Source: Woeseiaceae bacterium (lineage in GTDB: Bacteria; Pseudomonadota; Gammaproteobacteria; Steroidobacterales; Woeseiaceae). Taken from it: a DNA stretch of 64,000 bases. Where the stretch lies: positions 475 through 64,474 of the forward strand of contig JBFFSI010000005.1 of assembly GCA_041572475.1 (NCBI GenBank), written 5' to 3'. The translations under genes were made by a program, and so were the position numbers. Below are positions 24,349 to 44,408 of the stretch, one piece after another (position 1 is the first letter of the stretch; every line of letters begins with the position of its first letter). The notes beneath the pieces were generated by a model, which worked only from the letters and a program-made list of their open reading frames with translations, had not been told where the DNA came from and ran no database searches.

Positions 24349-24381
24349 TTACATGCGCTCCGGTGTTGTTGTTCGCTGTGG

Positions 24382-25054: not shown

Positions 25055-26245
25055 ATGCATCGAATGCAGTCGCAACCTGCAGCTGGTAATACCGTCCGGG
25101 ACGCGGCGAGCCGGGATTCAGCGTCGATCGCCGACGCGCAACCTGTGCCGCTGTATGTCGGCAGTGGCCTATTCCGGCGCGCTGCTTTCGGCAACCATCA
25201 CCCGCTGAAGATCGTCCGCCATTCTGCCGTCCTCGACCTCGTGCACATGCTTGGCTGGCTGACGGACGAGGCGTTCTGCACGGCGCCGGCGGCGACCTTC
25301 GATGAGCTCACGACATTTCATGACCCGGACTACGTGCGGGCCCTTCAATACGCAGACTCCACCGGGACGGTCGATCCCGCAGAGCGCACGCATTACCGCA
25401 TCGGCACCCTCGAAAACCCGTTGTTCACAGGGCTGTTCGAGCGGGCGGCAACGACGGTCGGCGGTTCGATACTGGCCGCGAGGCTAGCCGGCAAGGGCCA
25501 CGTCGTGTTTCACCCCTCCGGCGGCACCCACCATGGCCGGCCCGGCCGGGCGAGCGGTTTCTGCTATTTCAACGATCCCGTTTTCGCGATCCGGACCCTG
25601 CTTGGCGAGTGCGAGATGGACCGCGTGATGTATATCGACCTCGATGCCCATCACGGTGACGGGGTGGAGGAGGCGTTCGTCGACGAGCCTCGAGTGATGA
25701 CGGTGTCTATTCACGAGCAGCACCGCTGGCCCTACAGCGGCCTGGCCAGCGACCGGCGCAACGGCGGCGCGCGCAATCTGCCGGTCCCGAAGGGCGTCAA
25801 CGACAGCGAGCTCGAGTACCTGGTCGAGCATGCCGTGGAGCCGCTGCTTGACAGGTTCGCCCCCGATGCGCTCGTGCTCTGTTGCGGCGCGGACTGCCTG
25901 GCCGGGGATCCGTTGTCCGGCATGCAGCTGAGCAACGTGGCGCTGTGGGACACCGTGGAACGGCTGCTGGCGACCGGCAAGCCCGCGGTCATTCTCGGCG
26001 GTGGCGGTTACAATCCCTGGACCGTGGCGCGCTACTGGGCCGGTCTGTGGGGCCGCCTGATCGGCGCGACGTTCCCGGACGAGTTGCCCGCCGAGGCTCG
26101 CGAGTTGTTCGGCAAGTTGGAATGCGACCTGATCGACGAAGACGACGTCGAAGAGGCCTGGCTCAAGACGCTGGTGGACGTTCCCAATGCGGGCAAGGTG
26201 CGCGACGAGATAAGATCATTGGCGAGGGAAGTGACGAGGAGGTGA
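25055..26245 (+). CDS. Zn-dependent histone-deacetylase-family (AcuC/HDAC class I-like) lysine deacylase
   Basis: All catalytic blocks are present: SGGTHHG...ASGFCYFND, Zn ligands in DLDAHHGDG and GADCLAGDPL, and catalytic Tyr in GGGGYN. The exact start is uncertain (ATG 25055 or 25064, or GTG 25145). Confidence 0.85.
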   Translation: MHRMQSQPAAGNTVRDAASRDSASIADAQPVPLYVGSGLFRRAAFGNHHPLKIVRHSAVLDLVHMLGWLTDEAFCTAPAATFDELTTFHDPDYVRALQYADSTGTVDPAERTHYRIGTLENPLFTGLFERAATTVGGSILAARLAGKGHVVFHPSGGTHHGRPGRASGFCYFNDPVFAIRTLLGECEMDRVMYIDLDAHHGDGVEEAFVDEPRVMTVSIHEQHRWPYSGLASDRRNGGARNLPVPKGVNDSELEYLVEHAVEPLLDRFAPDALVLCCGADCLAGDPLSGMQLSNVALWDTVERLLATGKPAVILGGGGYNPWTVARYWAGLWGRLIGATFPDELPAEARELFGKLECDLIDEDDVEEAWLKTLVDVPNAGKVRDEIRSLAREVTRR

Positions 26246-26247
26246 GC

Positions 26248-27285
26248 ATGGCGTGGCTTGATGCCCTGGCCGGGATCGACGACCTGGAAGACGCGGAATT
26301 CGACGGAGATCTCGTTGCGCGCTTCGAGGCGATGGCGGCGAGGACCGTCGAGCGCCCGATCCGATTCTCGACGCCCACCTTCAAGGAATACGAAAGCTCC
26401 GAGCTGAGTGGTTGCGGCAAGAACAGCTTCCCGGCCTTTTCGATCACCGCGGCGGCCTGCGCGCTGAATTGCGACCACTGCCAGAAAAAAATCCTGGAGC
26501 CGATGATCCCGGCGACCAACCCGGCGATGCTGGACACGAAAGTGCGCCACCTCATCGAGACCCAGGAACTGAACGGGTTCCTGCTGTCAGGCGGTTCCAA
26601 CAAGCGCAACGAGATTCCGTACAGTCGCTACATGCCCGTCATCGAACACCTCAAGCGCGACTTCCCGCAGCTCAAGATTGCCGTGCACAGTGCGCTGCTG
26701 GACGAGCCGCGCGCAAAGGAGATGGAATCCGCAGGCGTCGACACGGTCATGATGGACGTCATCGGCGCCCAGGAGACCATCAACGAGGTCTACAACCTCG
26801 ACCGCTGTGTCGACGACTTCGAGGCGACACTCGCCGCGCTGTGTTCCACGTCCATGGAAGTGACGCCGCATATCGTGATCGGCCTGCACTATGGGCGCAT
26901 CCTCGGCGAGGCGAACGCGCTGGACATGGTCAGCCGCTACCCGGTGACGGCGCTGGTCTTGGTCGTGATCATGCCGTTCTATGCGAAGCCCGGGACCTTC
27001 GTCACGCCTGCAACTGCCGACGTCGGCCGCATCTTCCTCGAGGCGAGGGAGCGGCTGCCAGACCGGCAGGTGCTGCTGGGCTGTGCGCGGCCGCCAGGCA
27101 TGCACAAGCGGGTCACGGACGCTTACGCCATAATGGCCGGGCTCGATGGCATAGCCTTTCCGGCCGACGGCGCCGTCAGCGTGGCGCATACGATCGGCCG
27201 GCCGTTCGAGCAGGCGCATTCCTGCTGTTCGATCAAGGTCGGCAGCAGCCTCAAGACGTCAATTTCGCGTTCATGCGCGGCGTAA
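26248..27285 (+). CDS. Radical-SAM protein, LipS1/LipS2-type lipoyl synthase component (A)
   Basis: CX3CX2C as CALNCDHC. 345 aa. GAGGAGG SD (26236-26242) lies inside the deacylase gene, whose TGA (26243-26245) is 2 nt before this ATG. Assignment as LipS1 or LipS2 cannot be made by eye. Confidence 0.7.
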   Translation: MAWLDALAGIDDLEDAEFDGDLVARFEAMAARTVERPIRFSTPTFKEYESSELSGCGKNSFPAFSITAAACALNCDHCQKKILEPMIPATNPAMLDTKVRHLIETQELNGFLLSGGSNKRNEIPYSRYMPVIEHLKRDFPQLKIAVHSALLDEPRAKEMESAGVDTVMMDVIGAQETINEVYNLDRCVDDFEATLAALCSTSMEVTPHIVIGLHYGRILGEANALDMVSRYPVTALVLVVIMPFYAKPGTFVTPATADVGRIFLEARERLPDRQVLLGCARPPGMHKRVTDAYAIMAGLDGIAFPADGAVSVAHTIGRPFEQAHSCCSIKVGSSLKTSISRSCAA

Positions 27286-27300
27286 GCAAAGGATAGGACC

Positions 27301-28515
27301 ATGAGTTGCATCGAGCCGAAGTCCAGTACCGCGATGGAGCCGCGCTTCCCGCAGAAGACGCCGCAGGAGCGCCGTAACGGCCGCCGCGTCAAGGACAATG
27401 ACATCCCGCCGGAAGGTGTGTACCTGCCAAACAACAACTACCTCGCCCCGCACATGGTCTCGCCCGAGTATGTGCAGATGTCCAATGCGGCCGCGATCAC
27501 TCTAGGCATCATGGGCGGGCGCATGTACCGCTGCGAATGCACGCGCTGCCTCAACCTGCTGCTGACCTATCCCGAGGGTTGCCGGGCCAACTGTGCCTAC
27601 TGCGGGCTGGCGCGCCACCGCGAGGCGGACCGCGACTATGCGGACCGTAATTTCATCCGCGTCGACTGGCCGGCAGTGCCGCTTGTCGACATCGTCGATA
27701 TCGTTGCGAAAGACCCGGAGAACAGTCCGTTCCATCGGATGTGCATCTCGATGATCACGCACCCGCGGTCGGAGGCGGATACCTTCACGGTTCTCGAGCG
27801 CTGGACGGACCGGATCGACCCGGATGCGATTCCCGTTTCGATCCTGTCGAACCCGACGACGATGACCCGTGAGGACGTGCAGAAGACCCGGGATCTCGGC
27901 GCCGACATCTTCACGGTGGCGCTCGACGCAGCCACGCCCGAGGTCTTCGACCGCACGCGCGGGAAGGGCGTCCAGTCGCCGCACAAGTGGTCGAAGTACT
28001 GGGAGATCCTGCTCGATGCAAAAGATATCTTCGGCCCGGACAAGTTCGGCGCGCACATCATTGTCGGCATGGGGGAGACCGAATACGAGGCGCTGAAACT
28101 GGTCCAGGAGCTCGTCGATCTCGGTGGTCACAGCCACATGTTCTGCTTCTTCCCGGAGCAGGGCTCGCTGATGGATCATCTGCCCGCGACGCCCCGCGAC
28201 CAGTGGCGTCGAGTCCAGCTGGCGCGCTACCTGATCGACTACCGCGACGTCCGCGTCGATCACATGCGTTTCGACGATGAGGGCCGTGTCGTGGACTTCG
28301 GCCTGCCTGCGTCGGAACTCTCCAACATCATCGACGACGGCATCGCCTTCCGGACGTCGGGGTGCCCGGGCAAAGTCCAGGACGACATATCGGCCTGTGA
28401 CCGTCCCTACGGCGACTCACCCCCCTCGGATATCGCGAGCTATCCGTTCCAGCCCGAGAAGAAAGACATCAAGAAAATCCGCAAGCAACTCGAAATCCCG
28501 GTGCGGGTCGAATAA
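27301..28515 (+). CDS. Radical-SAM protein, LipS1/LipS2-type lipoyl synthase component (B), BioB-like
   Basis: CX3CX2C as CRANCAYCGLAR. 404 aa. Starts 15 nt after the previous gene. Confidence 0.7.
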   Translation: MSCIEPKSSTAMEPRFPQKTPQERRNGRRVKDNDIPPEGVYLPNNNYLAPHMVSPEYVQMSNAAAITLGIMGGRMYRCECTRCLNLLLTYPEGCRANCAYCGLARHREADRDYADRNFIRVDWPAVPLVDIVDIVAKDPENSPFHRMCISMITHPRSEADTFTVLERWTDRIDPDAIPVSILSNPTTMTREDVQKTRDLGADIFTVALDAATPEVFDRTRGKGVQSPHKWSKYWEILLDAKDIFGPDKFGAHIIVGMGETEYEALKLVQELVDLGGHSHMFCFFPEQGSLMDHLPATPRDQWRRVQLARYLIDYRDVRVDHMRFDDEGRVVDFGLPASELSNIIDDGIAFRTSGCPGKVQDDISACDRPYGDSPPSDIASYPFQPEKKDIKKIRKQLEIPVRVE

Positions 28516-28530
28516 GCCGACCTGCAAGGC

Positions 28531-29613
28531 ATGCCGAACGCATTTCGAATCATCGATACCGGTGTCCGCGAGGGCCGCGCCAATATTGCTTTCGATGCGG
28601 CGCTGATCGAAGAACGGCAGGCAGGCCGCGTGCCGGATACGGTTCGCTTCCTGCGGTTTCCGCCGACTGCGCTGATCGGGCGGCACCAGGACCTCAGCCG
28701 GGAGGTCAACCTCGACTATTGCCGTGAGCACGGGATCGGCATCGTTCGCCGCATCACGGGCGGCGGCGCCATCTACCTCGACGAGGGTCAGCTCGGCTGG
28801 GAACTCGTGTTTCATCGCGCCTCCCTGGGTGTTGCCGCGTTGCCCGACCTGACGCGCAAGATCTGCGATGCGGCCGCCGCCGGGCTGAGAAAGCTCGGCG
28901 TCAAGGCCCGGTTCCGGCCGAGAAACGACATCGAAGTAGATGGCCGCAAGCTGAGCGGGACGGGTGGCTTCTTCGACGGCGACGTGCTGATCTTCCAGGG
29001 GACGGTGCTGGTCGACATGAATTCGGGGCAGATGGCGCAGGCGCTGAATATCCCGGAAAGCAAGCTGGCCAAACATCAGCTGGAGTCGGCGGCCGACCGC
29101 ATCGTGACGCTGAAAGAACTGCTGGGCGACGACCTGCCGCCCATGGCGGACATACAGCAGGCACTCATCGACGGTTTCACCGAGAGTTTCGGCATCGAGG
29201 CCGCGCCCGGCGTCATCAGCGAGGCGGAAGAGGCGCTGGCCCACCGGCACTTCATCGAGGAGATCGGCACCGACGAGTTTGTCGGGGAAATCGACAATCC
29301 CGGCGAGGACAACGAGTTGCTCAGCGGTAGCCATACCGGTCCCGGCGGCACGATCGATGCGCACGTCAAGCTCGAGGGTCCGACCCGGCGCATGCTGCAG
29401 CGGGTACTGATCAGCGGCGACTTCTTCGTGACGCCGCCGCGCATCGTGTTCGACCTCGAGGCACACCTGATGCACACGCGCATCGAGGAGGTCGGTGCAG
29501 CCATCGACGAGTTCTTCGCGGACAACGACATCGACATGCTCAGCGTGTCCCCCGACGACTTCAAGGCGTCGATCGCCGCGGCCGTCGGGGCGGGAGGGCG
29601 GGCCGGTGTCTGA
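28531..29613 (+). CDS. Lipoate-protein ligase, sLpl(AB)-type (LplA catalytic plus accessory domain)
   Basis: N-terminal BPL/LPL catalytic-domain blocks: RFLRFPPTALIGRHQDL...IVRRITGGGAIYLDEGQL...GRKLSGTGGFFDG. Confidence 0.85.
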   Translation: MPNAFRIIDTGVREGRANIAFDAALIEERQAGRVPDTVRFLRFPPTALIGRHQDLSREVNLDYCREHGIGIVRRITGGGAIYLDEGQLGWELVFHRASLGVAALPDLTRKICDAAAAGLRKLGVKARFRPRNDIEVDGRKLSGTGGFFDGDVLIFQGTVLVDMNSGQMAQALNIPESKLAKHQLESAADRIVTLKELLGDDLPPMADIQQALIDGFTESFGIEAAPGVISEAEEALAHRHFIEEIGTDEFVGEIDNPGEDNELLSGSHTGPGGTIDAHVKLEGPTRRMLQRVLISGDFFVTPPRIVFDLEAHLMHTRIEEVGAAIDEFFADNDIDMLSVSPDDFKASIAAAVGAGGRAGV

Positions 29614-29659
29614 TTGCAGCCCCGACGCATTCGCCATGGCCGGGCGCACCGGGGCGCCA

Positions 29660-30403
29660 ATGAACGTCGTCGCGGTGATCCAGCATACCTCCGGAGAGTA
29701 CCTCGGCCTGATGGAGGACCACCTGGAAGGCCGTCGGATCCGCTTCCAGTATTTCCGCCCATTTACGAGCGGCGGCAAGCTGCCGGCGGCTGACTTGCCG
29801 GCCGACGCGTTGATCCTGCTGGGGGGCGGCCCGTGGGGCGCCGCCGGCACCCGCGACCTGCCGACGCTGGCCGAGGAAATCGAATTGACCCGGGCGCGCC
29901 TGGCGGAGGGTACGCCCGTCATCGGTATGGGCCTCGGCGCGCAGATCCTCGCCATCGCCGCCGGCGGGGGCGCGGAACCGGCCGAATTCGCGTTCGAGAT
30001 CTACCCGGCGACCCGCATCAAAGACGATGCGCTCAACGGCTTCCTGCCCGAGCGCTTCACGCAGGTGACGTACATGCGCGACCGTCCCGTACTGCCCGCC
30101 GACGCGAAGGTGCTGGCAGTGGGTCCCGACGACCGGCCGGCGATCTTCCAAATGGGCCATAATGCTTATGGCTTTCTGGGTAACCCCGGGATTAAGCTCG
30201 GCATGATCGAAGACCTCATCATGGAGTTCGAGGAAGTGCCGATCGGTGCGCCTGCCGAACTCGAGAGATTGCGCGGACTCCAGGTGGCTATCGAAGACGA
30301 CCTGGTGCCCATCATGACGGGGCTGGTGCAGTGCACGGCCCTGATGACGTCGCCACGGGCGGCGGAGGAAGCTGCGCGCAAATTGGACAACCCTTTAATT
30401 TAG
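29660..30403 (+). CDS. Class-I glutamine-amidotransferase-like protein lacking the nucleophile cysteine
   Basis: MNVVAVIQHTSGEYLG...LILLGGGPW...PVIGMGLGAQILA. The nucleophile-elbow position (G-x-C-x-G) reads G-M-G-L-G. An alternative start is ATG 29636. Confidence 0.65.
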   Translation: MNVVAVIQHTSGEYLGLMEDHLEGRRIRFQYFRPFTSGGKLPAADLPADALILLGGGPWGAAGTRDLPTLAEEIELTRARLAEGTPVIGMGLGAQILAIAAGGGAEPAEFAFEIYPATRIKDDALNGFLPERFTQVTYMRDRPVLPADAKVLAVGPDDRPAIFQMGHNAYGFLGNPGIKLGMIEDLIMEFEEVPIGAPAELERLRGLQVAIEDDLVPIMTGLVQCTALMTSPRAAEEAARKLDNPLI

Positions 30404-30470
30404 GATATGCTAATGTGCTGTTAAGCGGCCTTCCGTGGGGGTGGGTCGGCGGCAGCCGAGGATAATAACA

Positions 30471-30851
30471 ATGGCTGAGAAACTCATTATCGTCATGGCG
30501 AACACCGACACCCGGAACGGCGAGGAGCTCGGTGCGCCGATTTTCCAGGCGACCGTGGCAGCGGCGATGGATTATGAGGTGGACGTGATTTGCACGGCGA
30601 CGGCTGGCCGCCTGATGAAGAAAGGCGTCGCGGAAAAGCTGTTCGTGAAGGAAGGGTCGCCGAAGTCGGTTTACAGCTTCATCCAGGATGCCCACGAAGC
30701 CGGCGCCAAGTTCTATTGTTGTTCGCCTAACCTCGACCTCTTCGACATGACCCAGGACGACCTCATTCCCGAATGCGAAGGGATCGTCGGCGGCGCTCAC
30801 CTGATTGAGCAGGTCATGGAGGAAGAGGACACCCGGGTTCTTACTTACTAG
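30471..30851 (+). CDS. DsrE-family small sulfurtransferase-like protein
   Basis: 126 aa. GAGGA SD lies 8 nt before ATG 30471. KLIIVMANTD...AKFYCCSPNLDLFDM is DsrE/DsrF-like with paired Cys. Confidence 0.72.
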   Translation: MAEKLIIVMANTDTRNGEELGAPIFQATVAAAMDYEVDVICTATAGRLMKKGVAEKLFVKEGSPKSVYSFIQDAHEAGAKFYCCSPNLDLFDMTQDDLIPECEGIVGGAHLIEQVMEEEDTRVLTY

Positions 30852-30860
30852 GTCAGCTCT

Positions 30861-31607
30861 ATGTCGCACGCGTCCACGTCTCGAGTACAGGAATACATTG
30901 GCGATCCCGTATCGGAAGAAACACCGGTACCGAGGGAGCAACTTGAGGAGATCTTCCAGGACATCCAGGCGGACCTGCGCTACGACCACGAGCTGAACGG
31001 CTGTCTCAACTGCGGCATCTGCACCGCAACCTGCCCGGCTGCGCATTACTACGATTTCAGCCCGCGCGAGATCGTGCAGCTGCTCTGGACCGAGAATCTC
31101 GAGGGCATCTACGATGCCATGCAGGAGAAGATCTGGTCCTGTGCCCAGTGTTACACCTGTGCGGCGCGCTGTCCCTTCGGCAACTCGCCGGGTGGTCTGG
31201 TCATGCTCATGCGCGAGACCGCGATCAAGCACGGCATGGAGTCCGCCAAGAGCGTGCTGCGGCCGTTTAGCCGCGTCATGCTGAAGCTGATCTCCACGGG
31301 CAACCAGCTGTCGCCGGACATGATCAACCCCGAAGGCTTTGCCGATTGGGGGCCGCACATCTCGAAGGTGGATGCGCCGCTCGAGACGCTGCGCAAGGCG
31401 ATTCCGATGCCGACCTTGCATACGACCAAGACGGCATGGGAGGTCAACCTCAAAACATCTGTCGAGCTCTACACGATCTGGGAAGAAACCGGCGTGCTCG
31501 ACAGCCTCGAAACGATTGACGAAAACCTCTTCGACGTCATCTCGGACATCATGGACGAGAAGCGTGATGACTACGAAGACTGGTTGGACGAGCAGGACGA
31601 AGACTAG
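30861..31607 (+). CDS. hdrC1: sHdrC1, ferredoxin-like heterodisulfide-reductase-like subunit
   Basis: Two 4Fe-4S motifs, CLNCGICTATCP and CAQCYTCAARCP. Position and size are typical of sHdrC1. Confidence 0.85.
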   Translation: MSHASTSRVQEYIGDPVSEETPVPREQLEEIFQDIQADLRYDHELNGCLNCGICTATCPAAHYYDFSPREIVQLLWTENLEGIYDAMQEKIWSCAQCYTCAARCPFGNSPGGLVMLMRETAIKHGMESAKSVLRPFSRVMLKLISTGNQLSPDMINPEGFADWGPHISKVDAPLETLRKAIPMPTLHTTKTAWEVNLKTSVELYTIWEETGVLDSLETIDENLFDVISDIMDEKRDDYEDWLDEQDED

Positions 31608-31616
31608 GAGTAGCAA

Positions 31617-32963
31617 ATGTCGACAGGTAATGGTGGGGAACGTTTCACCGGTCACGGTTCTGAGTGGCAGGATACAAACCTGAGTAAGGAGGAAGCGCAC
31701 GTGGCTACGGTCTGGGTCGACCAGATCGTCAACCGGCGCTCCATGCTGACCAACAAGGACCGCGTCGAAGACGTGCGTGACCTGATGTGGGAACTCGAGA
31801 AAGACGGCGAGATCCTCGTGCATCGCGTCGAGGATCAGCACGAGCCGATCATGGTCAAGACGCTGTATGGCTGGGACAAGAAAATTCCGACGACCCAGCT
31901 ATGGCATCACAAGTCCTGCGGGCAGTGCGGCAACATCCCCGGTTACCCGGCTTCGCTCCTGTGGCTCATGAACGAGATGGACATCCGGTATCTCGACGAG
32001 ACCGACCAGACCTCGTGCACGGCATGGAACTACCACGGTTCGGGCATAGGCAATATCGAGAGCCTCTCGGCCGTGTTCCTGCGCAACTTCCACCAGGCCT
32101 ACGTCGCGGCCAAGGCCCAGGGCCTGCCGGAGGGCTACTACTATCCGCTGGTTCACTGCGGCACGTCTTTCGGCAACTACAAGGAGGTGCGCGGTTACCT
32201 GCTGCACTCGGCCAAGCTGCGCGAGCGGGTCAAGAAGATCCTCGGTAAGCTGGGGCGCCTCGTGGACGGCAAGCTGCTGATTCCCGAAGAGGTCGTGCAC
32301 TACTCCGAATGGCTGCACGTGATGCGGGACAAGATCGCCGAACGCCAGGTTATCGACGCCAGCGAGATCCGTGCGACGGTGCACCCGGCCTGCCACGTCT
32401 ACAAGATGGTGCCGGAAGACGCCATTTACGACGACAAGATTCTCGGCGGCAACCGTGTCGCCGTGACGACCGGGGTTCTCGAGTCGCTGGGCACGCAGGT
32501 CATCGACTACCGCACCTGGTACGACTGCTGCGGATTCGGCTTTAGGCACATCATTTCCGAGCGCGAGTTCACGCGCTCGTTCGCGATCGATCGCAAGATC
32601 CGGGTGGCGCAGGAAGAGGCGCGCGCGGATATGATGATTGGCCACGACACCGGTTGCATCACCACGCTCGACAAGAACCAGTGGATCGGCGCAGCCGCCG
32701 GCAAGCCGGTCGACCTTCCCGTGATGGCGGACTGCCAGTTCGCCGCGCTGGTCTGCGGCGCACATCCCTACAAGATCGTGCAGCTGCACTGGCACGCGTC
32801 GTCGACCGAAAGGCTGATGGAAAAACTGGGCATCGACTGGCAGGCGAAGAAAGCCGAGTTCGAGGCCTATTTAAAGGACGTGGAAGCGGGCAAGGGCGAG
32901 ACCCTTTACGACCCGCGAAAGATGATCACGTCCGGTCCGGGATTCAAGGCAATCGAAGGCTAG
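31617..32963 (+). CDS. hdrB1: sHdrB1, CCG-domain subunit
   Basis: 448 aa. Cys-rich blocks CGQCGN, HPACHVYK and WYDCCGFGF (CCG motif). Confidence 0.85.
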   Translation: MSTGNGGERFTGHGSEWQDTNLSKEEAHVATVWVDQIVNRRSMLTNKDRVEDVRDLMWELEKDGEILVHRVEDQHEPIMVKTLYGWDKKIPTTQLWHHKSCGQCGNIPGYPASLLWLMNEMDIRYLDETDQTSCTAWNYHGSGIGNIESLSAVFLRNFHQAYVAAKAQGLPEGYYYPLVHCGTSFGNYKEVRGYLLHSAKLRERVKKILGKLGRLVDGKLLIPEEVVHYSEWLHVMRDKIAERQVIDASEIRATVHPACHVYKMVPEDAIYDDKILGGNRVAVTTGVLESLGTQVIDYRTWYDCCGFGFRHIISEREFTRSFAIDRKIRVAQEEARADMMIGHDTGCITTLDKNQWIGAAAGKPVDLPVMADCQFAALVCGAHPYKIVQLHWHASSTERLMEKLGIDWQAKKAEFEAYLKDVEAGKGETLYDPRKMITSGPGFKAIEG

Positions 32964-33022
32964 GTTGCCTCGTGCCGCCCGCGGCGGCATAGAGAGACGG
33001 CTCGCTGAGACGAGAGGATGAC

Positions 33023-34072
33023 ATGGCAAAACCAATACTAATTCTAGGTGGCGGACCGGCCGGTCTGGCCGCGGCACATAGCCTCGGTACCGTTGGCCGT
33101 TCCAGTATTCTCGTCGAGAAAGAAGACAAGCTCGGGGGCGCACCGATCCTGTCCGGCTATGCCAAGCTCGTGCCTACGGGCGAATGGGCCAAGGATGCGA
33201 TCGGCGGGATGGTGAAACGAGTCGAGAATGACAAGAACGTCAAGGTGCTAACCGGTACTACCGTCACGAAGTTCGACGGCAGTCCCGGGAATTTCGAAGC
33301 ACAGCTCTCCAGTGGCGACAGCGTGCAGGTCGATGCGGCAGTACTCTGTAGCGGGTTCACTCACTTCGACTCGGTCAACAAGCCCGAGTGGGGTTTCGGC
33401 ACGTTTCCCGATGTCGTGACGACGACCCAGGTCGAGCAGATGATCTCGTCGGGCCAGGGCGTGCGCTGCCCGTCTGACGGCCGCAAGCCGCAACGGGTAG
33501 CGATCCTGCTGTGCGTCGGCTCCCGTGACCGCCAGATCGGCCGCGAGTGGTGCTCCAAGATCTGCTGCACGGTATCGGCCAACATGGCCATGGAGATCCG
33601 CGAGGAGCTGCCGGATTGCCACGTCTATATCTATTACATGGACATCCGAACCTTCGGCCTCTACGAGACCAAGTACTACTGGCGCAGCCAGGAGGAGTTC
33701 AAGGTCAAGTACATCAAGGCGCGTATCGCCGAGGTCACGTCCGACGGTGAGAAGCTGATCGTCAAGGGCGAGGACACACTCGTGAAGCGTCCGATCACGA
33801 TCCCCTTCGACTTGGTGGTGCACGCGATTGGCATGGACCCGAACGTGGATAACCCGACCATCGCCGAGACCTTTGGTGTCGACCTCGAAGAACACGGGCA
33901 CATTGCTGCGGCCAATCGCTACGGCGCCATGGGTCACACGTCTCGACCCGGCGTTTACGTTGCCGGCGCGGCAACCGGCCCGGAGACGATCGATGATTCG
34001 ATCGCCCAGGGCCACGCGGCCGCCATGTCGGTGCTGTCGGCCCTCAGCGAGTCGCTGGGCAAGAGCGCCTAG
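33023..34072 (+). CDS. hdrA: sHdrA, FAD/FeS flavoprotein subunit (short bacterial type)
   Basis: Dinucleotide fold ILILGGGPAGLAAAHSLG. HdrA cluster signature LLCVGSRDRQIGREWCSKICC. 349 aa. Confidence 0.9.
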   Translation: MAKPILILGGGPAGLAAAHSLGTVGRSSILVEKEDKLGGAPILSGYAKLVPTGEWAKDAIGGMVKRVENDKNVKVLTGTTVTKFDGSPGNFEAQLSSGDSVQVDAAVLCSGFTHFDSVNKPEWGFGTFPDVVTTTQVEQMISSGQGVRCPSDGRKPQRVAILLCVGSRDRQIGREWCSKICCTVSANMAMEIREELPDCHVYIYYMDIRTFGLYETKYYWRSQEEFKVKYIKARIAEVTSDGEKLIVKGEDTLVKRPITIPFDLVVHAIGMDPNVDNPTIAETFGVDLEEHGHIAAANRYGAMGHTSRPGVYVAGAATGPETIDDSIAQGHAAAMSVLSALSESLGKSA

Positions 34073-34083
34073 GGCCGCGCACC

Positions 34084-34929
34084 GTGTCGAAGATTGCCGC
34101 GTTGCAGCCCGCCGACATCGAGCGCCCCGTGCTCGACCTGTCGGGTGACGCGCTGCGCGCGGGCCTGAAGGCCATGGTGGTGTGCAGCGAGGAACACGGC
34201 GGCATCGAGCGCTATGTGGATGCCGTCAAGCTGAAGAGCAAGTTGTTCCGCGAGGCCCTCGTGGAAACCTCCGTGGACAACCTGGAGCTCGAGACCTTCA
34301 AGGGGCTGTGCACGTTCATGGCGACGGTGCGGCGGCGCGTCAGTGGCTGGCTGACGACAGACTCTTTCGACCACATGCGCGGGCGCATCAAGGAACTACT
34401 GGAAGGCGATGCCGACGTGGACGCCCGCATCGCGGCCTTCTGTAGCCATTTCCCGACTGACAAGCGGCATCGCTGGGTGCGGGATCTCGCCACCGAGCTG
34501 CTGCACAATTCCGATCCCGAGCGCATCCCGCTGATGAACCGCTGGGTGTGGGATGCGAAAGCCAACACCGGCGTCATCCGTGAGATCTGGCACGGCGACG
34601 ACGTGGATCACATGACCATTCCGGTAGCGGACGGCTACGGTACCTACGTGATGCTGCGGGAAGAGCTCAGCCAGTTCCTGAGCGACGAAGGTATGTTCCG
34701 GGATGTCCTGCAATACGTGGATATGCTCTGCGCGCAGATCTATGCGCAATACATCTGCGAGCAGGGCGGCAGCTACCTGCGCACGGATTTCTCGGCGCCG
34801 GAAGACCCGATGGAACACACGCGGCGCCTGCTGGGACTTGACGGCGTCCGCCCGGGCAACGGCAAGACGAGACTCAAATCGATCGACGGCGAGGCTTTCG
34901 TCATCGAGGACAACAAACTGTTGAACTGA
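34084..34929 (+). CDS. Conserved 'Hyp' protein of sHdr clusters (between hdrA and hdrC2)
   Basis: 281 aa from GTG 34084, 11 nt after hdrA and 6 nt before hdrC2. Position and size match the conserved hypothetical of described shdr loci. No motif is known to me. Confidence 0.7.
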   Translation: MSKIAALQPADIERPVLDLSGDALRAGLKAMVVCSEEHGGIERYVDAVKLKSKLFREALVETSVDNLELETFKGLCTFMATVRRRVSGWLTTDSFDHMRGRIKELLEGDADVDARIAAFCSHFPTDKRHRWVRDLATELLHNSDPERIPLMNRWVWDAKANTGVIREIWHGDDVDHMTIPVADGYGTYVMLREELSQFLSDEGMFRDVLQYVDMLCAQIYAQYICEQGGSYLRTDFSAPEDPMEHTRRLLGLDGVRPGNGKTRLKSIDGEAFVIEDNKLLN

Positions 34930-34935
34930 CCGACC

Positions 34936-35700
34936 ATGCCAATTCACGAAAAATCGCTGATCCGCCCCGAAAACCTCAAGACGCACGATGAACTCGTCCT
35001 CGATGGGGTCGATGTCTCCGGCCACTGGAGCACCTTCATCGAATCCCGCGTCGTGACCGACTACAACGAAAAACTGGAGGACGAGATCGCCGCGCTCCCG
35101 GGCGGCGAGCACATCCACCGCTGCTGGCAATGCGGGTCCTGCACGAACTCCTGCACGGTCCATGCCATCAACCCGGACTTCAACCCGCGCTACTGGATCT
35201 ACCTGATCCGCATTGGCATGGAATCCGAGCTGCTGCGCGACAAGGACATCATCTGGCAGTGCGTGTCCTGCAACAAGTGCACCTACGCCTGCCCCCGCGA
35301 CGTGTTCCCCGAGGGTGTGATGAAGGCGACCGGGCACTGGCTCGAGCGCAAGGGCCACACCGAGAAGTCACCCTCGACGCACTTCGACGAGGTGTTCACC
35401 GAGCAGGTCGTCAAGACCGGCAAGATCGAGGAAAGCCGGACAATTCGGCGGTTCTTCACGCGCACGAAACAGGCGCTGGTGCAGCCCTGGATGGTCGAGA
35501 TGATGATACGGCTGCTGCGGGGCCTGCCCGTCGGCCTGCTGACCCGGATGGGTCTTGCCACGCTGGTGGCGCCGCGCACCAGCGGCTGGTCGCGAGCGTC
35601 GCAGGCGATGCAGGAGTATATCGACGAGCAGCATGCGAAACAGGAAGAGGCATTGACGCTGGCACAGACTATCGAAAAGGCGCGTCGGGACGCCGCCTAG
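34936..35700 (+). CDS. hdrC2: sHdrC2, ferredoxin-like subunit
   Basis: CWQCGSCTNSCT and CVSCNKCTYACP. Confidence 0.85.
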   Translation: MPIHEKSLIRPENLKTHDELVLDGVDVSGHWSTFIESRVVTDYNEKLEDEIAALPGGEHIHRCWQCGSCTNSCTVHAINPDFNPRYWIYLIRIGMESELLRDKDIIWQCVSCNKCTYACPRDVFPEGVMKATGHWLERKGHTEKSPSTHFDEVFTEQVVKTGKIEESRTIRRFFTRTKQALVQPWMVEMMIRLLRGLPVGLLTRMGLATLVAPRTSGWSRASQAMQEYIDEQHAKQEEALTLAQTIEKARRDAA

Positions 35701-35709
35701 GAACATTAG

Positions 35710-36642
35710 ATGACGACGAAAGACAAGTACAAGAAGGTGGCCTACTACCCGGGCTGCGCGCTCGAGGGCACCGGGCATTCCTATAACCGTTCGACCAAGG
35801 CCGTCGGCAAGGCGCTGGGACTCGACCTGGTCGAGGTCAAGAACTGGAACTGCTGCGGGGCGATGGAAGTCAAGAACGTTGACCCCAAGCTGCAGACCTA
35901 CCTGTCCTCGCGGGTCATGTCGATCGCGGCCAACGAGATGGACATGGACGTAGTGATGGCGCCTTGCAACGGCTGTTACCACAACCTGAAGAAAGCCGAG
36001 TACGATCTCGCCAACGACAAGGAATCGGTCGACGTCGTCGACAAGCTGTCCAAGAAGGCTGGCCACAAGACCTACGAGTCCGGCCAGGTTGAGACCATTC
36101 ATGCGCTCGACTGGATCAAGGACTCGATCGGCGAGGACGGCCTCGCGGAGCGGGTCAAGAATTCGCTCTCCGGCATCAAGATCGCCAACTACTACGGCTG
36201 CATGTACACGCGTCCGCGGCACATCTTCCCCGAGAAGGACGCAGGCCCAGGCTCGGAGTCGACGTCCAAACCGCATTTCATGGACGATCTGCTCGCGGCG
36301 GCCGGCGCCGAAAACGTCGACTTCCCGCTGAAGACAGCCTGTTGCGGCGGCGCGCATACACTGTCCGACAGTGACACCTCGACCAAGCTCGTGCTGAACA
36401 TCCTGAAGACCGCGAAAATGGCCGGAGCGGACGTGATCGCAACCGAGTGTCCCACGTGTCACACAGGTCTCGAAATGCACCAGATTCGTGCGGAAAAGAC
36501 CCTGGGCGTGACCGTCGACATCAAGATTCTCTATTTCACGCAGCTGCTCGGCATGGCGCTCGGCCTGAAGCCGAAGAAGGTCGGAGTCCACGAGAACATC
36601 TCCGACTCCCGCAGCTTCCTGAAGGAAAAAGGGCTCGCATGA
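35710..36642 (+). CDS. hdrB2: sHdrB2, double CCG-domain subunit
   Basis: YYPGCALEG...NWNCCGA and YYGCMYTRP...KTACCGGAHT. Confidence 0.87.
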   Translation: MTTKDKYKKVAYYPGCALEGTGHSYNRSTKAVGKALGLDLVEVKNWNCCGAMEVKNVDPKLQTYLSSRVMSIAANEMDMDVVMAPCNGCYHNLKKAEYDLANDKESVDVVDKLSKKAGHKTYESGQVETIHALDWIKDSIGEDGLAERVKNSLSGIKIANYYGCMYTRPRHIFPEKDAGPGSESTSKPHFMDDLLAAAGAENVDFPLKTACCGGAHTLSDSDTSTKLVLNILKTAKMAGADVIATECPTCHTGLEMHQIRAEKTLGVTVDIKILYFTQLLGMALGLKPKKVGVHENISDSRSFLKEKGLA

Positions 36643-39359: not shown

Positions 39360-40388
39360 GTGAAAACACTTCGCACCTGGTCGGCGGCAGTGCTGGGCAT
39401 CCTGTGCCTGGCGCTGCCGGCGCTGGCCGCCAAAGATATTGGTATCTTCGAGACGATCCTCGAGTCGTCACAGTCGTTCGATGCGACCGCGGCCGCCGTT
39501 GAGTCGGCTTTCGACGAGTCCGAGTTCAAGCTGCACGCCATGCATAACGTGCGCGTTCCCGACGACAAGCACCAGGCGAGGCTATATGTGCTGACCTCTC
39601 CCGCCTACCTGGCGGCGGCAGCCGCCGAGTCGCCGCGCACGGTGTCGGCGCAGGTCCTGCGGGTCGCGGTCTATACGCTCGGCGACGAGCAGAAGACCTA
39701 CGTGAACATGGCCAACCCGGTCGCGCACGCGATGGTGTATTACAGCGAGTCGGACAATTACCACGCTCTCGTCGAGGCGGCGAAGACCGCAGCGGCAGGC
39801 CTCAGGTCGGTCGTGCAGGCCCTGCCGGGCACGCCGGTCAGCCAGCAGCTCGAGCCGATGCGCGCCGAGAAGAAATACCGCAAGTTCAACGGCGACGGCC
39901 CCGCGAAGATGATGGCCAGGTTCCGCAACTGGGAGGAGAGCCAGCTGCAGATCCTGGAGGAGTCCGCGGATGACTTCGGTGCAGTGGTCGATCGTGTCGC
40001 TGCGGCGCTCGCCGCGGGCTCGGTTGCGGGCGCCGACGAGACGCGCGGCTGGGAGATCGTGACACAGATCCCCTTCGGCGAGGACGCCGTATACCTCGGC
40101 CTGACGAACCCCTACATCGAGGACCGGATGGTCCGCATCAACTCGCGCTTCCGTTCCGAAGGCAAGACGGAGGCCGCGCCTTATCCCGGCGTCGACCACG
40201 TGACGGCGCTGCCGACGGACTTGCTGATCGTTCGCGGCGGCAACAAGACCCGCGTGTTGCATTACGGCCAGATGTGGCGCATGCAGCTGTACTTCTGGGA
40301 TTCCGGCTACCGCGCGTTTACCGCCAACATGGGCGTTCCCGGAGACATCGCGGATTCGATCGAAGCCGCCGTCCTCCAGGCCGAGTAG
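39360..40388 (+). CDS. Periplasmic protein of unknown function (possible tandem DUF302-like fold)
   Basis: GTG start 9 nt after the fadL-like stop. Signal peptide MKTLRTWSAAVLGILCLALPALAA. The N-terminal half (SFDATAAAVESAFDESEFKL...RLYVL...QVLRVAVYTLGDEQKTYVNMANP) resembles the DUF302 pattern from memory. Confidence 0.6.
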   Translation: MKTLRTWSAAVLGILCLALPALAAKDIGIFETILESSQSFDATAAAVESAFDESEFKLHAMHNVRVPDDKHQARLYVLTSPAYLAAAAAESPRTVSAQVLRVAVYTLGDEQKTYVNMANPVAHAMVYYSESDNYHALVEAAKTAAAGLRSVVQALPGTPVSQQLEPMRAEKKYRKFNGDGPAKMMARFRNWEESQLQILEESADDFGAVVDRVAAALAAGSVAGADETRGWEIVTQIPFGEDAVYLGLTNPYIEDRMVRINSRFRSEGKTEAAPYPGVDHVTALPTDLLIVRGGNKTRVLHYGQMWRMQLYFWDSGYRAFTANMGVPGDIADSIEAAVLQAE

Positions 40389-40438
40389 CTGTCAGGGGGT
40401 CCCTGTCCCGCTGGTTGGTCCCTGTTATTATCCCGGGC

Positions 40439-42172
40439 ATGAAGAAGGACAAACTCGACCCGGACTGGCTTCGCCAGCAAATCGTCGGCATCGATTCGAC
40501 CTTCGAGACGCCGTTCGGCGAACGACTGATGGTGTACTGTGACTACACGGCATCCGGCCGCTGCCTGCGTTTCGTCGAGTCCTACCTGCAGAGCCTGCAG
40601 CGCGTCTACGCGAATACCCACACCGAGGACGACATCACCGGCCGCAGCATGAGCCAGCTGCTGCACGAAGCCGAGATAGCGATCAAGGCGTCGGTCAATG
40701 CGGGGCCCGGCGGCCGGATTGTCGCCTGCGGCACGGGCGCGACCGGCGCGATCGACAAGCTGCAGCAGATCATCGGCGTGGCGCTTGCTCCCGCGACGCG
40801 CCAGAACATCGAGGGCCTGCTCGACGACCCCGACTCGGGATACACCAGCGGGGCCTTCCGGCAGCTTCTGCGCGACAGGCAGCCCGTCGTTTTTGTCGGT
40901 CCGTACGAGCATCACTCGAACGAACTGTCGTGGCGGCAGTCACTGGCGACGAGCATCGAGGTCCGGCTGGATGCCACCGGCAATATCGACCTCGCACATC
41001 TCGAAGAATTGTTGCAGGCGCCCGAATACCAGGACCGGCTGCGTATCGGCTCGTTCTCCGCCGCGTCCAACGTCACCGGTATCCGGTCCAACGTCCGCGA
41101 AATTGCCGCGCTGTTGCACAGGTATGGCGCGATCGCCTGTTTCGACTATGCGGCCTGTGCGCCGTATGTCGAAATCGACATGAACCCGGACGACGACGGT
41201 AACGGCGATGCCTCGATCGACGCGCTCTACGTGTCACCGCACAAGTTTCTCGGGGGCCCCGGTTCCAGCGGCGTACTCGTGTTCAACGAACGCATCTATC
41301 ACCGGGAATTGCCGCCGAGCGTGAGCGCAGGCGGCACCGTGGACTACGTCGGGCCGGAAGACCAGGATTACATCACGAGCATCGAGGAGCGCGAGAAGGC
41401 GGGCACGCCGGGTGTGCTGCAGACCATGAAGGCGGCGCTCGTGTTCCAGGTCAAGGACCGCGTCGGTGTCGATGTCATCGAGAAACGCGAACGCACGTTC
41501 ACAAAGCGAGCCCTCGATAGCTGGGGCGGAAACGAATACATCGAGATCCTGGGCAACCCCGACCCGGCGCAGCGTGTCGGGATCATCTCGTTCAACGTCC
41601 GCGACCATCGCGGCAGTTACCTGCACCACAAATTCGTGACGGCGCTGCTCAACGACCTGTTCGGCATCCAGTCGCGCGCGGGGTGCTCCTGTGCCGGGCC
41701 TTACGGGCACCGGCTCCTGAATATCGACCAGGAGACCTCGGAGAAGTACCGCGTGGCGGTGCAGCAGGGGTACTGCGGCTTGAAGCCCGGCTGGTGCCGG
41801 GTCGGCCTGCACTGGGTCATGGACGATGCCGAGGCGAACTACGTCATCGATGCCGTGAATTTCGTGGCCAACCACGGTCGCCACTTCCTCGGCCTGTACG
41901 ACTTCGACCTTGGCACGGGCACCTGGTCGCACAAGCAGGGCCCCGGGGTATTGCCGAGCTTTTCGCTGGGCGTGGCGCTGGTCGAGGATGAGGGGGAGCC
42001 GGCTACACTGTCGCTGGCGCTGCGCAGGCAACTCTACAATCACTACCTGACTGAGGCTGGCCGCTGGCTCGAGCGCCTCAAGGACAAACCTGAAGGGCCC
42101 CTCGAGTCACTCGAGGGGGACCTGGCGGACCTGCAGTTTTTCGCGCTGCCGCCGCAAACGTCCAGGCACTAG
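40439..42172 (+). CDS. Class-V aminotransferase-fold PLP enzyme, cysteine desulfurase-like with C-terminal extension
   Basis: PLP-Lys block VSPHKFLGGPGSSGVLVF. Cys loop SRAGCSCAGPYGH. The start is set at ATG 40439 (MKKDKLDP...). The ORF maximum of 40274 would overlap the previous gene. Confidence 0.78.
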   Translation: MKKDKLDPDWLRQQIVGIDSTFETPFGERLMVYCDYTASGRCLRFVESYLQSLQRVYANTHTEDDITGRSMSQLLHEAEIAIKASVNAGPGGRIVACGTGATGAIDKLQQIIGVALAPATRQNIEGLLDDPDSGYTSGAFRQLLRDRQPVVFVGPYEHHSNELSWRQSLATSIEVRLDATGNIDLAHLEELLQAPEYQDRLRIGSFSAASNVTGIRSNVREIAALLHRYGAIACFDYAACAPYVEIDMNPDDDGNGDASIDALYVSPHKFLGGPGSSGVLVFNERIYHRELPPSVSAGGTVDYVGPEDQDYITSIEEREKAGTPGVLQTMKAALVFQVKDRVGVDVIEKRERTFTKRALDSWGGNEYIEILGNPDPAQRVGIISFNVRDHRGSYLHHKFVTALLNDLFGIQSRAGCSCAGPYGHRLLNIDQETSEKYRVAVQQGYCGLKPGWCRVGLHWVMDDAEANYVIDAVNFVANHGRHFLGLYDFDLGTGTWSHKQGPGVLPSFSLGVALVEDEGEPATLSLALRRQLYNHYLTEAGRWLERLKDKPEGPLESLEGDLADLQFFALPPQTSRH

Positions 42173-42174
42173 GC

Positions 42175-43524
42175 TCAGGCGAGATTGTCGGCCACGAGTT
42201 CGAGCAGGCTCTCGATGTCCTTGTCCCACTTGAAGTGTTCTTTAGCGTCGGCGTAGCTCTGCCGGCAATTCGAGCACGTCGAGAGGATGGTCCTGGCACC
42301 GGTTGCCTCGACCTGGTCCATCTTCAGTTCGAAGACCTTGTACCTCAGCTTGTCGGCACGGTGAATGGTGATAACACCGCCGCCGCCGCCGCAACACCAG
42401 TTGAAGTCCCCGCTCGGGGCCATCTCCTCGAGATTCAGCCCGAGGGCCTCCATGACGACACGCGGAGCCTCTGTCGCGCCGCCGCGTCGGGCAACCTGGC
42501 AGGGATCGTGGAATGTCACGGTCTGGTCGACTTTCCTGACCCTCAGGCGACCCGATGCGATGGCGTCGGCCAGGAACTCGGAAATGTGTTGCACCTTGAA
42601 CGGTAATGGCTTGCCATACATGGCCGCGCCTTGCCAGCGCAACGCACCGTAGGCGTGACCGCATTCCGGCAGGACGACCAGCTTGGCACCGCAGTTGATT
42701 GCCGCATTGATCAGCTTCATCGTCGCTTCTTTTTGCCAGCCGGAGTTGCCGGCCATCATGCCGAAGTTGGTCGCCTCGTAGCCCTCGGTCCGGAACGTCC
42801 AGTTTTCGCCCAGGGTATTGAGAATCTTTGCCGTGGCCGCAATCGAGTGCGGGTATTTCATGATCTCGATCGACGACATGCACACCAGTATGTCTGCCTG
42901 CTCCTTGTCGACAGGGATGTCGACTTCGTGCTCGTCGGCCATCCACTCGACCCGGTCCTCGAAGACTTCGGCCGTTGCGCCCAGCGGGCTGCCTTCTTCC
43001 TTGGCGCGCATTGCCGTTTCGTGCAATTCGTCGGGAACCAGTCCCGCGTGGAACATGCCGTGACGCGCCTGGCCGACCAGGGTGGCGATATCGATGCCCA
43101 TCGGGCAGATGAGCGAGCAGCGTCCACACATCGTGCAGGAGTCGTAGATCAGCTCCTGCCACTCGCCGAGCTGTTCGACGGTCACCTCGCGCTTCAGGCC
43201 AAAGAGGCGGTAGAAGAACCCGAACGGGCTGGCCTCGCGTTTGTAGGCCTGTTTGAAGACCTCCAGCTTCCAGATGGGCGTGTACTTCGGGTCTCCGGTC
43301 TGCACATAGTAGTGGCAGGCTTCGGCGCACTGGCCGCAGTGAACGCAGGCCTCCATGTAGCTCGCCGTCGTGCGATTCATGTTCTTGGCGAAGTTCGCCA
43401 TCGCCCGGCGCAGTCGCTCGTTCTCGTCGATGTCCCCCTGCGTGTCGTGACGCGGGTGCGGGTCCTTGACAGTCAGTCTCGGTTGATCTTCATCCAGAGG
43501 GTATTTTTGTGTTACCTCGCTCAT
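42175..43524 (-). CDS. HdrD/DsrK-like FeS oxidoreductase (two 4Fe-4S motifs plus CCG domains)
   Basis: CVHCGQCAEACH, CTMCGRCSLICP, HDPCQVARRGG and NWCCGGGGG. Its stop is 2 nt from the convergent PLP-enzyme stop. Confidence 0.85.
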   Translation of the reverse strand: MSEVTQKYPLDEDQPRLTVKDPHPRHDTQGDIDENERLRRAMANFAKNMNRTTASYMEACVHCGQCAEACHYYVQTGDPKYTPIWKLEVFKQAYKREASPFGFFYRLFGLKREVTVEQLGEWQELIYDSCTMCGRCSLICPMGIDIATLVGQARHGMFHAGLVPDELHETAMRAKEEGSPLGATAEVFEDRVEWMADEHEVDIPVDKEQADILVCMSSIEIMKYPHSIAATAKILNTLGENWTFRTEGYEATNFGMMAGNSGWQKEATMKLINAAINCGAKLVVLPECGHAYGALRWQGAAMYGKPLPFKVQHISEFLADAIASGRLRVRKVDQTVTFHDPCQVARRGGATEAPRVVMEALGLNLEEMAPSGDFNWCCGGGGGVITIHRADKLRYKVFELKMDQVEATGARTILSTCSNCRQSYADAKEHFKWDKDIESLLELVADNLA

Positions 43525-44174
43525 ACCCTTGCTCCTTTACGCGTGAACGCATAACCGGTCGAATACCTTGTGCCGAAAACGATGATCGAGTGCATCAGCT
43601 TGCCGAACGGGAACCAGACCAGGAAGATTTCGAAGCTCAGGATGTGCAGGGCGAGCAGCATCTCGTAGCGCGCGCCCACATGTGCGACGGCCAGCAGTCC
43701 CGTGGCGACGGGCAGCGCTGTAACCAGCCACGAGAAGTAGTCGTCGAAATTCGAGATCAGCCGCAACACCGGGTGCTTCAGCCTGCGCCCGATGCCCGTC
43801 AACAACGTAGCCAGCGCCAGCGCAGCCGCGACATGGATGACCACGGCCGGCAGCGCCGGCCAGGAGAGGCCGGTAAAGCTCTCGATGAAGAGTATGTGCG
43901 GGGCGCTGCCAAAGATGACGACGGCGAGGCTGATGTGCATCGCGTAAGCCAGAACCGTGCCATTGAACGTGCGCGTGCGAAACGGCTCGTGATGCACAAA
44001 GCGCGAAAATATGGCGCGAAGGCCGCCGGCCCGGACAGCCTCCGAACGCGGCTCCGAGATGTCGACTTTCCGAACAGTGAGGAGAATATGCACGAGTCGC
44101 CAGGCGAGGCCTGCGACGAAGATGATGACGGCGATCTGCAGACCGGGACCGCGCACGAAGTCGAGTAGCTCCAT
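43521..44174 (-). CDS. NarI/DsrM-like membrane di-heme b-type cytochrome (quinone-interacting subunit)
   Basis: 217 aa with 5 predicted TM helices and conserved-looking His residues (VHILL, AMHISL, VAHVG, ALHILSFEIFLVWFPFGKLMH, a NarI-family tail). A 4-nt overlap with the downstream dsrK-like gene indicates translational coupling. Confidence 0.78.
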   Translation of the reverse strand: MELLDFVRGPGLQIAVIIFVAGLAWRLVHILLTVRKVDISEPRSEAVRAGGLRAIFSRFVHHEPFRTRTFNGTVLAYAMHISLAVVIFGSAPHILFIESFTGLSWPALPAVVIHVAAALALATLLTGIGRRLKHPVLRLISNFDDYFSWLVTALPVATGLLAVAHVGARYEMLLALHILSFEIFLVWFPFGKLMHSIIVFGTRYSTGYAFTRKGARV

Positions 44175-44408
44175 AGCCGTTTCCCCAGGTTTCCTTTTGG
44201 ATTCAGCCCCTTGGCGGGCATCCCTGACGTTCGCCGTCAGTATCCCTGTTCCGACGGCGATCTTGCATAAGGATTACTGCCTACCCGGCTTCCACCCAGG
44301 CCGGGCCATCGACCGGTTTTCGGCACGCTCGCCGTCTAAGGGTGTGCAAGGGACAGGGGCAGCCCCCAACGCTGCCGTGCCAGTTAAATCCAAAATGGGA
44401 GGAACACC

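Follow-up and report, generated by a model that had tools for sequence, protein, structure and literature searches.

A complete type I shdr-lbpA island of the published kind (PMC11094781) lies in the 64,000-nucleotide stretch of the Woeseiaceae bacterium contig JBFFSI010000005.1 that was analysed here and is called the window. It is accompanied by a pair of minus-strand genes, which encode a 217-residue membrane protein (isp1/dsrM-like, 43521..44174) and a 449-residue iron-sulfur protein (isp2/dsrK-like, 42175..43524); genes and proteins are named M and K in the following. We propose, with a probability somewhat above one half (about 0.55), that M-K forms part of the type I sHdr-LbpA island and that it is functional, works independently of hydrogenase and belongs to the Isp1/Isp2 branch within the DsrMK superfamily. 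A functional link between M-K and sHdr is supported by three kinds of sequence evidence, namely gene neighbourhood, co-occurrence and homology. As a hydrogenase-less Isp1/Isp2 pair beside type I shdr, M-K is a candidate link to the quinone pool; in the literature searched, which covered few subscription journals, no published description of an Isp- or DsrMK-type module together with type I shdr was found.

The stop codon of M and the start codon of K overlap in the four nucleotides ATGA, as the first-pass annotation of this DNA had pointed out for the two minus-strand genes. This coupling is kept in 10 of 11 orthologous loci, and a GGAG-type ribosome-binding site precedes K. M had been described as a membrane cytochrome b with five helices, and this was borne out: hydropathy peaks mark five hydrophobic segments, and His80, His93, His177 and His195, four residues for two haems, are invariant in 91 homologues, with the spacing of bis-His ligands in di-haem cytochromes b of the NarI type. 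M matches the NCBIfam models TmcC and HmcE end to end but below the equivalog cut-offs, and is not recognised by Pfam, where the NarI family gave an E value of only 0.15. A sequence search of the PDB with M returned no match.

K is a cytoplasmic protein in which no signal peptide was found. It contains two cubane [4Fe-4S] motifs of the form CxxCxxCxxxC and one complete CCG motif made up of C342, C377, C378, C417 and C420, all of them invariant in 99 homologues; the 13 Cys of K, like the four His of M, are common to the stand-alone and the hydrogenase-embedded groups. Pfam recognises a single CCG domain (residues 336-421), and from the N-terminal CCG-like half only C288 is left, in the sequence E-C-G-H (residues 287-290) which aligns with the ECGH of genuine Woeseiaceae DsrK. 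With one full CCG motif and the N-terminal half reduced to C288, K is therefore of the single-cluster DsrK/Isp2 type and not of the two-cluster HdrD type. The earlier assignment as HdrD/DsrK-type was right in the two [4Fe-4S] motifs, but the HDPCQV and NWCCGGGGG stretches, taken there for several CCG domains, make up one CCG motif. According to the cryo-electron microscopy structure of DsrMKJOP, Cys329 of DsrK is a conserved, non-ligating and persulfide-bearing residue beside the single non-cubane cluster, and His331 is typical of the single-cluster relatives (bioRxiv 10.64898/2026.08.25.746951); by the ECGH alignment, C288 and H290 of K are the equivalents of these two residues. The sole solved relative of K in the PDB sequence search was the mycobacterial EtfD (9OJN, E 5.4e-19).

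Judged by sequence comparison, M-K is not DsrMK, HmcEF, TmcBC or HdrDE proper, and its nearest relatives are Isp1 and Isp2 of the Isp-type [NiFe] hydrogenases. K reached 237 bits on the HmcF model (3.5e-70; equivalog cut-off 750), 234 bits on DsrK (NF045796; cut-off 400) and 222 bits on TmcB (1.2e-65; cut-off 735), and M reached 111 bits on TmcC (4.3e-32; cut-off 240) and 95 bits on HmcE (5.5e-27; cut-off 275). A genuine Woeseiaceae DsrK scores 572 bits on the DsrK model, and the genuine DsrK proteins of this family are only 29-34% identical to K. The redox module of DsrMK/HdrED-like character that had been announced in the first-pass annotation thus holds at the superfamily level (DsrMK/HmcEF/TmcBC type), while the closest group, Isp1/Isp2, had been missed there. 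These proteins belong to the group 1e [NiFe] hydrogenases, encoded in the order hynS-isp1-isp2-hynL in Thiocapsa, Allochromatium, Acidithiobacillus and Thioalkalivibrio, and the hyn-embedded copies are 62-69% identical to K and 44-58% identical to M. M-K shares with them the membrane gene in first place, the ATGA coupling, the same four His and the same Cys motifs; unlike them, it does not stand between hynS and hynL, occurs also in genomes without Hyn-type hydrogenase, forms a clade of its own and is found beside shdr-lbpA.

A protein search returned more than 120 clusters, at 66-88% identity, from Woeseiaceae, Chromatiales, Acidiferrobacterales and Burkholderiales. Eighty genome loci were classed by tblastn, with the window proteins and the HynS and HynL of the window's own genome as queries. 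All K proteins of at least 79% identity came from Woeseiaceae-type metagenome-assembled genomes and have the same convergent shdr neighbourhood; those of 62-69% identity are mostly Isp2 inside hycI-hupH-hynS-isp1-isp2-hynL operons, and a third set is stand-alone and comes from Burkholderiales and other taxa. In the K tree (99 rows, LG+C20, rooted on DsrK/HmcF, branches tested by the Shimodaira-Hasegawa-like approximate likelihood ratio, SH-aLRT) K falls within the hyn-embedded Isp2 clade: the clade of stand-alone Woeseiaceae proteins (18 rows, SH-aLRT 99) has a Woeseiaceae hyn-embedded clade (25 rows, 100) as its sister, and both join with a support of 96, surrounded by further hyn-embedded clades. 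The betaproteobacterial stand-alone groups branch closer to the DsrK/HmcF root. The approximately unbiased test gives p 0.038 against a single clade of all stand-alone pairs, for which the log-likelihood is 46 lower; since the groups were named after the tree had been seen and the root falls on the long DsrK/HmcF branches, independent origins are not claimed.

The wider comparison sets M-K apart from each of the better characterised modules. DsrMK of the DsrMKJOP complex is a quinol:DsrC-trisulfide oxidoreductase. M-K resembles it in having a di-haem membrane subunit and a cytoplasmic subunit with two cubanes, a single CCG motif and the non-ligating ECGH; it differs from it in the scores and identities given above, in that no dsrJOP or dsrAB genes were found near M-K, and in that DsrC (PF04358) gave no match in the window's own genome, which is 87% complete. 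EtfD, with five transmembrane helices, haem b, two [4Fe-4S] and CCG-bound clusters, forms a wire from ETF (electron transfer flavoprotein) to menaquinone (PMC13083937), and EMO was proposed to carry the electrons of type II sHdr to menaquinone via EtfAB (PMC11094781). Unlike EtfD/EMO, M-K consists of two genes where EtfD is fused, K has one CCG motif where EtfD has two, and the pair accompanies a type I shdr (C2B2) and not a type II; no ETF domain was detected among the neighbouring genes scanned. The architecture of a cytochrome b with a CCG iron-sulfur subunit is common to HdrDE, HmcEF and TmcBC, but M-K has no cytochrome c3 partner, and the one CCG motif of K contrasts with the two of HdrD, which also has two non-cubane clusters.

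The connection with shdr, which the first-pass annotation had put forward, proved to be recurrent. In the first of three arrangements M-K is convergent with a shdr-lbpA-fadL-aminotransferase run, and this was found in 13 Woeseiaceae loci including the window. The second, on a Burkholderiales-type contig, is co-directional (M>K>tusA>HDAC>rSAM>GGR>rSAM>LplA>?>dsrE>shdrC1B1A; rSAM, radical SAM), and two further loci (L063 and L076) have shdr about 8 kb downstream of K. In the third, on another Burkholderiales contig, M-K is divergent from dsrE2-fadL-tusA-HDAC-lip genes-dsrE(-shdr). At one more locus dsrE2-fadL stands to one side of the pair and dsrE follows directly after K, while shdr is elsewhere in the genome. 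The tail-to-tail contact at 2 nucleotides, which had been read as abutment on the last gene of the sHdr run, is correct in its distance but not in the partner: the K stop codon lies 2 nucleotides from the stop of a plus-strand gene (40274..42172) for a SufS-like class-V aminotransferase, 4.6 kb past lbpA and no sHdr subunit. This gene is the conserved convergent partner of K in Woeseiaceae, and the gap between the two ranges from -4 to 154 nucleotides across the orthologous loci.

Co-occurrence was counted in a family sample of 151 genomes, 21 of which are shdrB1-positive, at a K-family threshold of at least 53% identity. K-family members are present in 19 of the 21 shdrB1-positive and in 1 of the 130 shdrB1-negative genomes, counts which come from related genomes and are not independent, and in the lone negative carrier the K gene is a fragment at a contig end. 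The 19 carriers comprise six with stand-alone pairs, 12 with hyn-embedded pairs and one whose hyn operon converges with the shdr run; in 11 of the 12 hyn-embedded cases the operon is on the shdrB1 contig, divergent and 13-26 kb away. Hyn-embedded pairs of a more distant type (38-44% identity) are common in shdr-negative genomes; the pair on contig 18 of the window's own genome resembles these. The pattern that the first-pass annotation had named as speaking against the link, a pair never near shdr and connected with lactate, glycolate or glycerol-3-phosphate oxidation instead, was not what we saw. M-K shows recurrent linkage and co-occurrence with the type I sHdr-LbpA island, but it is not universal.

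The pair is functional and no remnant. The reading frames of M and K are intact, with no stops and no frameshifts, and selection on both is strongly purifying: the pairwise Nei-Gojobori ratios of nonsynonymous to synonymous substitution (dN/dS) among ten shdr-adjacent orthologues are 0.056 for K and 0.10 for M, values that are approximate because dS is near saturation and that are no higher than those of the hyn-embedded copies (0.064 for the K type, 0.13 for the M type). An alignment of 11 orthologous upstream regions revealed a conserved element on the minus strand at 44239..44284, in the 234-nucleotide region before M, which is 20 nucleotides long, reads GTAGGCAG-n3-CCCTTATCC (also written GTAGGCAG-n3-CCTTATSC) and is followed after about 20 nucleotides by GATACT. 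It is kept in 10 orthologous loci and is probably the pair's own promoter or operator; a simple scan found no match to a canonical sigma-70 promoter, the spacing being unfit, and simple sigma-70 and terminator scans gave nothing useful. In a search that allowed 3 mismatches the element occurs once in the window, where 0.08 copies are expected.

Several points weigh against a role of M-K in sHdr. K-family matches are missing from two shdr-positive genomes of the family sample (93% and 96% complete), so the pair is not obligatory for sHdr; in five Woeseiaceae members of the stand-alone clade and in Pelomicrobium no sulfur genes lie within 10 kb of the pair, and in one genome (G138) shdr lies 472 kb from the stand-alone pair. 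The hyn-embedded relatives co-occur with shdr too, in the 12 family genomes and in 7 of 10 outside the family, so shared ecology alone can yield co-occurrence, and shdr, hyn and M-K may travel together on one lithotrophy island; the relatedness of the genomes counted and the saturation of dS count on the same side. The lone copy of the upstream element in the window gives no evidence for an operator common to M-K and shdr. On such grounds the pair could be seen as a hitch-hiker of the island, a quinone-linked oxidoreductase of general use for thiol/disulfide or persulfide groups, with a job such as redox homeostasis or the turnover of another cytoplasmic substrate, which is found near shdr through clustered and co-transferred lithotrophy genes; the loci distant from sulfur genes, the embedded relatives that also accompany shdr and an upstream element of M-K's own that shdr does not share would all suit it. 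We regard this as rather unlikely, since three arrangements keep M-K beside shdr or carrier genes while K is only 61-64% identical between the lineages, and one of them runs co-directionally straight into tusA and lipoylation genes. Even among the genomes that lack shdr within 10 kb of their stand-alone pair, 9 of 10 still have shdrB1, against a presence of shdr in only 397 assemblies of the GTDB R207 representative set (PMC11094781).

The relationship to Isp1/Isp2 admits two other explanations. M-K might act in trans as partner of a [NiFe] hydrogenase encoded elsewhere and pass electrons from H2 to quinone, as Isp1/Isp2 in Thiocapsa and Allochromatium. Its position in the Isp1/Isp2 clade fits this, as does the Hyn hydrogenase encoded elsewhere in the window's own genome and in the three sampled family genomes that show this adjacency (G077, G094 and G114). 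Moreover, no residues were found that are fixed in both stand-alone groups but otherwise in hyn-embedded Isp2, which also counts against a separate role beside sHdr and makes it probable that both act on the same substrate; positions specific for the Woeseiaceae clade alone number five in K and one in M. Nevertheless a trans-acting partner is quite improbable: the hydrogenase operon of this genome already has an isp1-isp2 pair, 43% identical; a Hyn-type large subunit is absent from at least four stand-alone carriers (G138, which is 98% complete, G153, G154 and G155); and in no genome of the family sample does a stand-alone pair occur together with a Hyn operon that lacks isp genes. The pair could also be what decay has left of a hyn operon after the loss of hynS and hynL, without present function, and it is indeed sister to hyn-embedded pairs of the same family, but the purifying selection across ten genomes, the complete set of intact cofactor ligands, the undamaged frames and the conservation of both the translational coupling and the upstream element make this hardly credible.

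For M-K as a component of the sHdr-LbpA island, the cofactor chain indicates what it may do. This chain comprises two haems b, two cubane clusters plus a single non-cubane cluster, and the same chain connects quinone with thiol or sulfur chemistry in the cytoplasm in the case of HdrDE and DsrMK, and with ETF in EtfD. In the proposed mechanism M, a cytochrome b of NarI-like type with five helices and two bis-His haems, would exchange electrons with the quinone pool, and K would sit on its cytoplasmic face; at its non-cubane cluster, beside the non-ligating Cys288 and His290, K would catalyse a two-electron reaction of the thiol/disulfide or persulfide type on a sulfur group that a protein of the sHdr relay carries. 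Electrons would likely move from this substrate to quinone in a sulfur oxidiser, and M-K would then correspond, with its genes split, to EtfAB-EMO, the exit proposed for type II sHdr. The direction of this flow, like the quinone reactivity and the substrate, is inferred. With no DsrC match and no periplasmic donor in the M-K module here, the cytoplasmic partner is most likely among the proteins that are always co-encoded.

A persulfide on TusA or DsrE is a possible substrate, which we put forward tentatively: the nearest neighbours of M-K in Burkholderiales are TusA and DsrE proteins and not LbpA, the nearest one in Woeseiaceae is the SufS-like enzyme, of a persulfide-forming family, and the persulfide-bearing Cys of DsrK is kept in K. 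Dihydrolipoyl-LbpA is a somewhat more doubtful choice. By an estimate from textbook redox potentials, quinone would oxidise this dithiol in a strongly exergonic reaction. A predicted K-LbpA complex gives weak support to it, with an ipSAE of 0.35 against 0.03 for the best control, a partner pLDDT (predicted local distance difference test) of at least 89 and at least 57% of the contacts in agreement between runs. In the calibration of these predictions 58 of 80 solved complexes passed the mark, as did 2 of 110 mismatched pairs; scores of 0.60 or less, however, were obtained by only 7 of the 80 solved complexes but by both passing mismatches. A direct docking of M-K to the sHdr complex seems very improbable. 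The most far-reaching proposal, that the stand-alone M-K supplies type I sHdr with its missing exit at the membrane, in which K oxidises dihydrolipoyl-LbpA or TusA/DsrE-bound sulfur and M reduces quinone, and that by extension Isp2 acts on the same carriers, is offered as a speculative one which may well not hold.

The island itself is laid out in canonical order. A dsrE3-like gene (plus strand, from 30435, part of 30435..36642; Pfam DrsE_2) precedes the type I core shdrC1-B1-A-hyp-C2-B2 (30861-36642, plus; Pfam Fer4, CCG and Pyr_redox_2), and after a small open reading frame behind shdrB2 comes lbpA, for a GcvH-like lipoate-binding protein (37085-37525, plus; Pfam GCV_H 2.5e-31), and then a gene for an ArsR-type regulator (37552-37908, plus; HTH_5 2.4e-14). 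Upstream of the core are tusA (24118-24348, minus) and a dsrE2-like gene (24382-24921, minus), followed on the plus strand, within 24118..30403, by HDAC-like, two radical-SAM (LipS-like), LplA-like ligase and GATase-like genes; this accessory set, from tusA to the GATase-like block, recurs between stand-alone M-K pairs and shdr in Burkholderiales. Directly downstream of dsrE2-tusA lies a gene of the molybdopterin sulfite-oxidase family (22672-24006, minus), which may encode a sulfite dehydrogenase of the same island.

Between the regulator gene and K the plus strand carries a gene for a FadL/TodX-type outer-membrane protein (37908-39350; Pfam Toluene_X 6.5e-10), a 342-residue open reading frame (39360-40388), both kept in the orthologous loci, and the SufS-like aminotransferase gene (Pfam Aminotran_5 1e-31; SufS family 1.8e-30, below the cut-off). 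Homologues of the latter have 578-586 residues, so its true start is probably near 40.4 kb. FadL/TodX-type genes recur together with sulfur-carrier genes, inside the shdr run in Woeseiaceae and, in Burkholderiales-type loci (L107:6995-8883, L109:7074-8952), paired with dsrE2 and divergent from the stand-alone M-K; an uptake of hydrophobic sulfur by such a protein is conceivable. M-K is flanked by the SufS-like gene and a gene for an acidic secreted protein and by neither hynS nor hynL. The latter gene, divergent from M (44409-45272), was considered as a partner and rejected, because no homologue of it occurs in any of the 80 loci.

The hydrogenase-associated relatives deserve some additional remarks. 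In the window's own genome (2.7 Mb) one other K-type gene and no further K-type match was found; this gene and an M-type gene are enclosed by hynS and hynL on contig 18, in a classical Isp-type operon of the order hycI-hupH-hynS-isp1-isp2-hynL (L003:3021-8726). HynS and HynL of this operon share 72-78% identity with their counterparts in operons that encode an Isp2 66-68% identical to the window K; at only 43% identity between the isp pairs, two deeply split isp lineages serve similar hydrogenases in one family. An origin of M-K by clean deletion of hynS and hynL, at the very place that a hyn operon would hold in sister genomes, was considered and dropped: in those genomes the hyn operon lies across shdr from this place, in divergent orientation and at 13-26 kb from shdrB1, and the sole hyn operon that converges with the shdr run, in G001 (L101), has a K protein of a different, basal clade. 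The order at L101 (contig C78, 7558-12073) is an unusual hynS-isp1-hynL-isp2, convergent with shdr-lbpA-fadL; its K is 53% identical and shares the basal clade with stand-alone pairs from Alphaproteobacteria.

Beside complete hyn operons we also encountered a lone extra K-type gene upstream of hycI (L078:6343-7686) and a tandem second K gene after isp2 (L030:3185-4450). HmcF is a subunit known from the Hmc complexes of sulfate reducers, and one Woeseiaceae locus (L089, G081:C23, 5880-7058) encodes a protein above the HmcF equivalog cut-off, with 808 against 750 bits, about 24 kb from the hyn operon and about 10 kb from the shdr of the same genome. Three loci titled Methylomirabilis, Bacteroidota and Levyibacteriota (L030, L032 and L064) have K genes nearly identical to beta- or gammaproteobacterial ones and are probably mis-binned.

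For the exit of electrons from type I sHdr-LbpA, DsrE2 has been offered as a possible membrane anchor, and EtfAB-EMO as a quinone route for type II only (PMC11094781). M-K, placed beside type I shdr through three arrangements, is a concrete candidate for this exit. If this is true, electrons of the cytoplasmic sHdr pathway would enter the respiratory chain directly, in the way proposed for type II with EtfAB-EMO. The pair also bears on what Isp2, the CCG subunit, does in the hydrogenases of sulfur bacteria. If the proposal holds, Isp2 of these enzymes would join H2 and sulfur metabolism at one protein-bound thiol pool. Woeseiaceae are abundant in marine sediments, and such a route would therefore matter for estimates of the energy yield of benthic sulfur oxidation.

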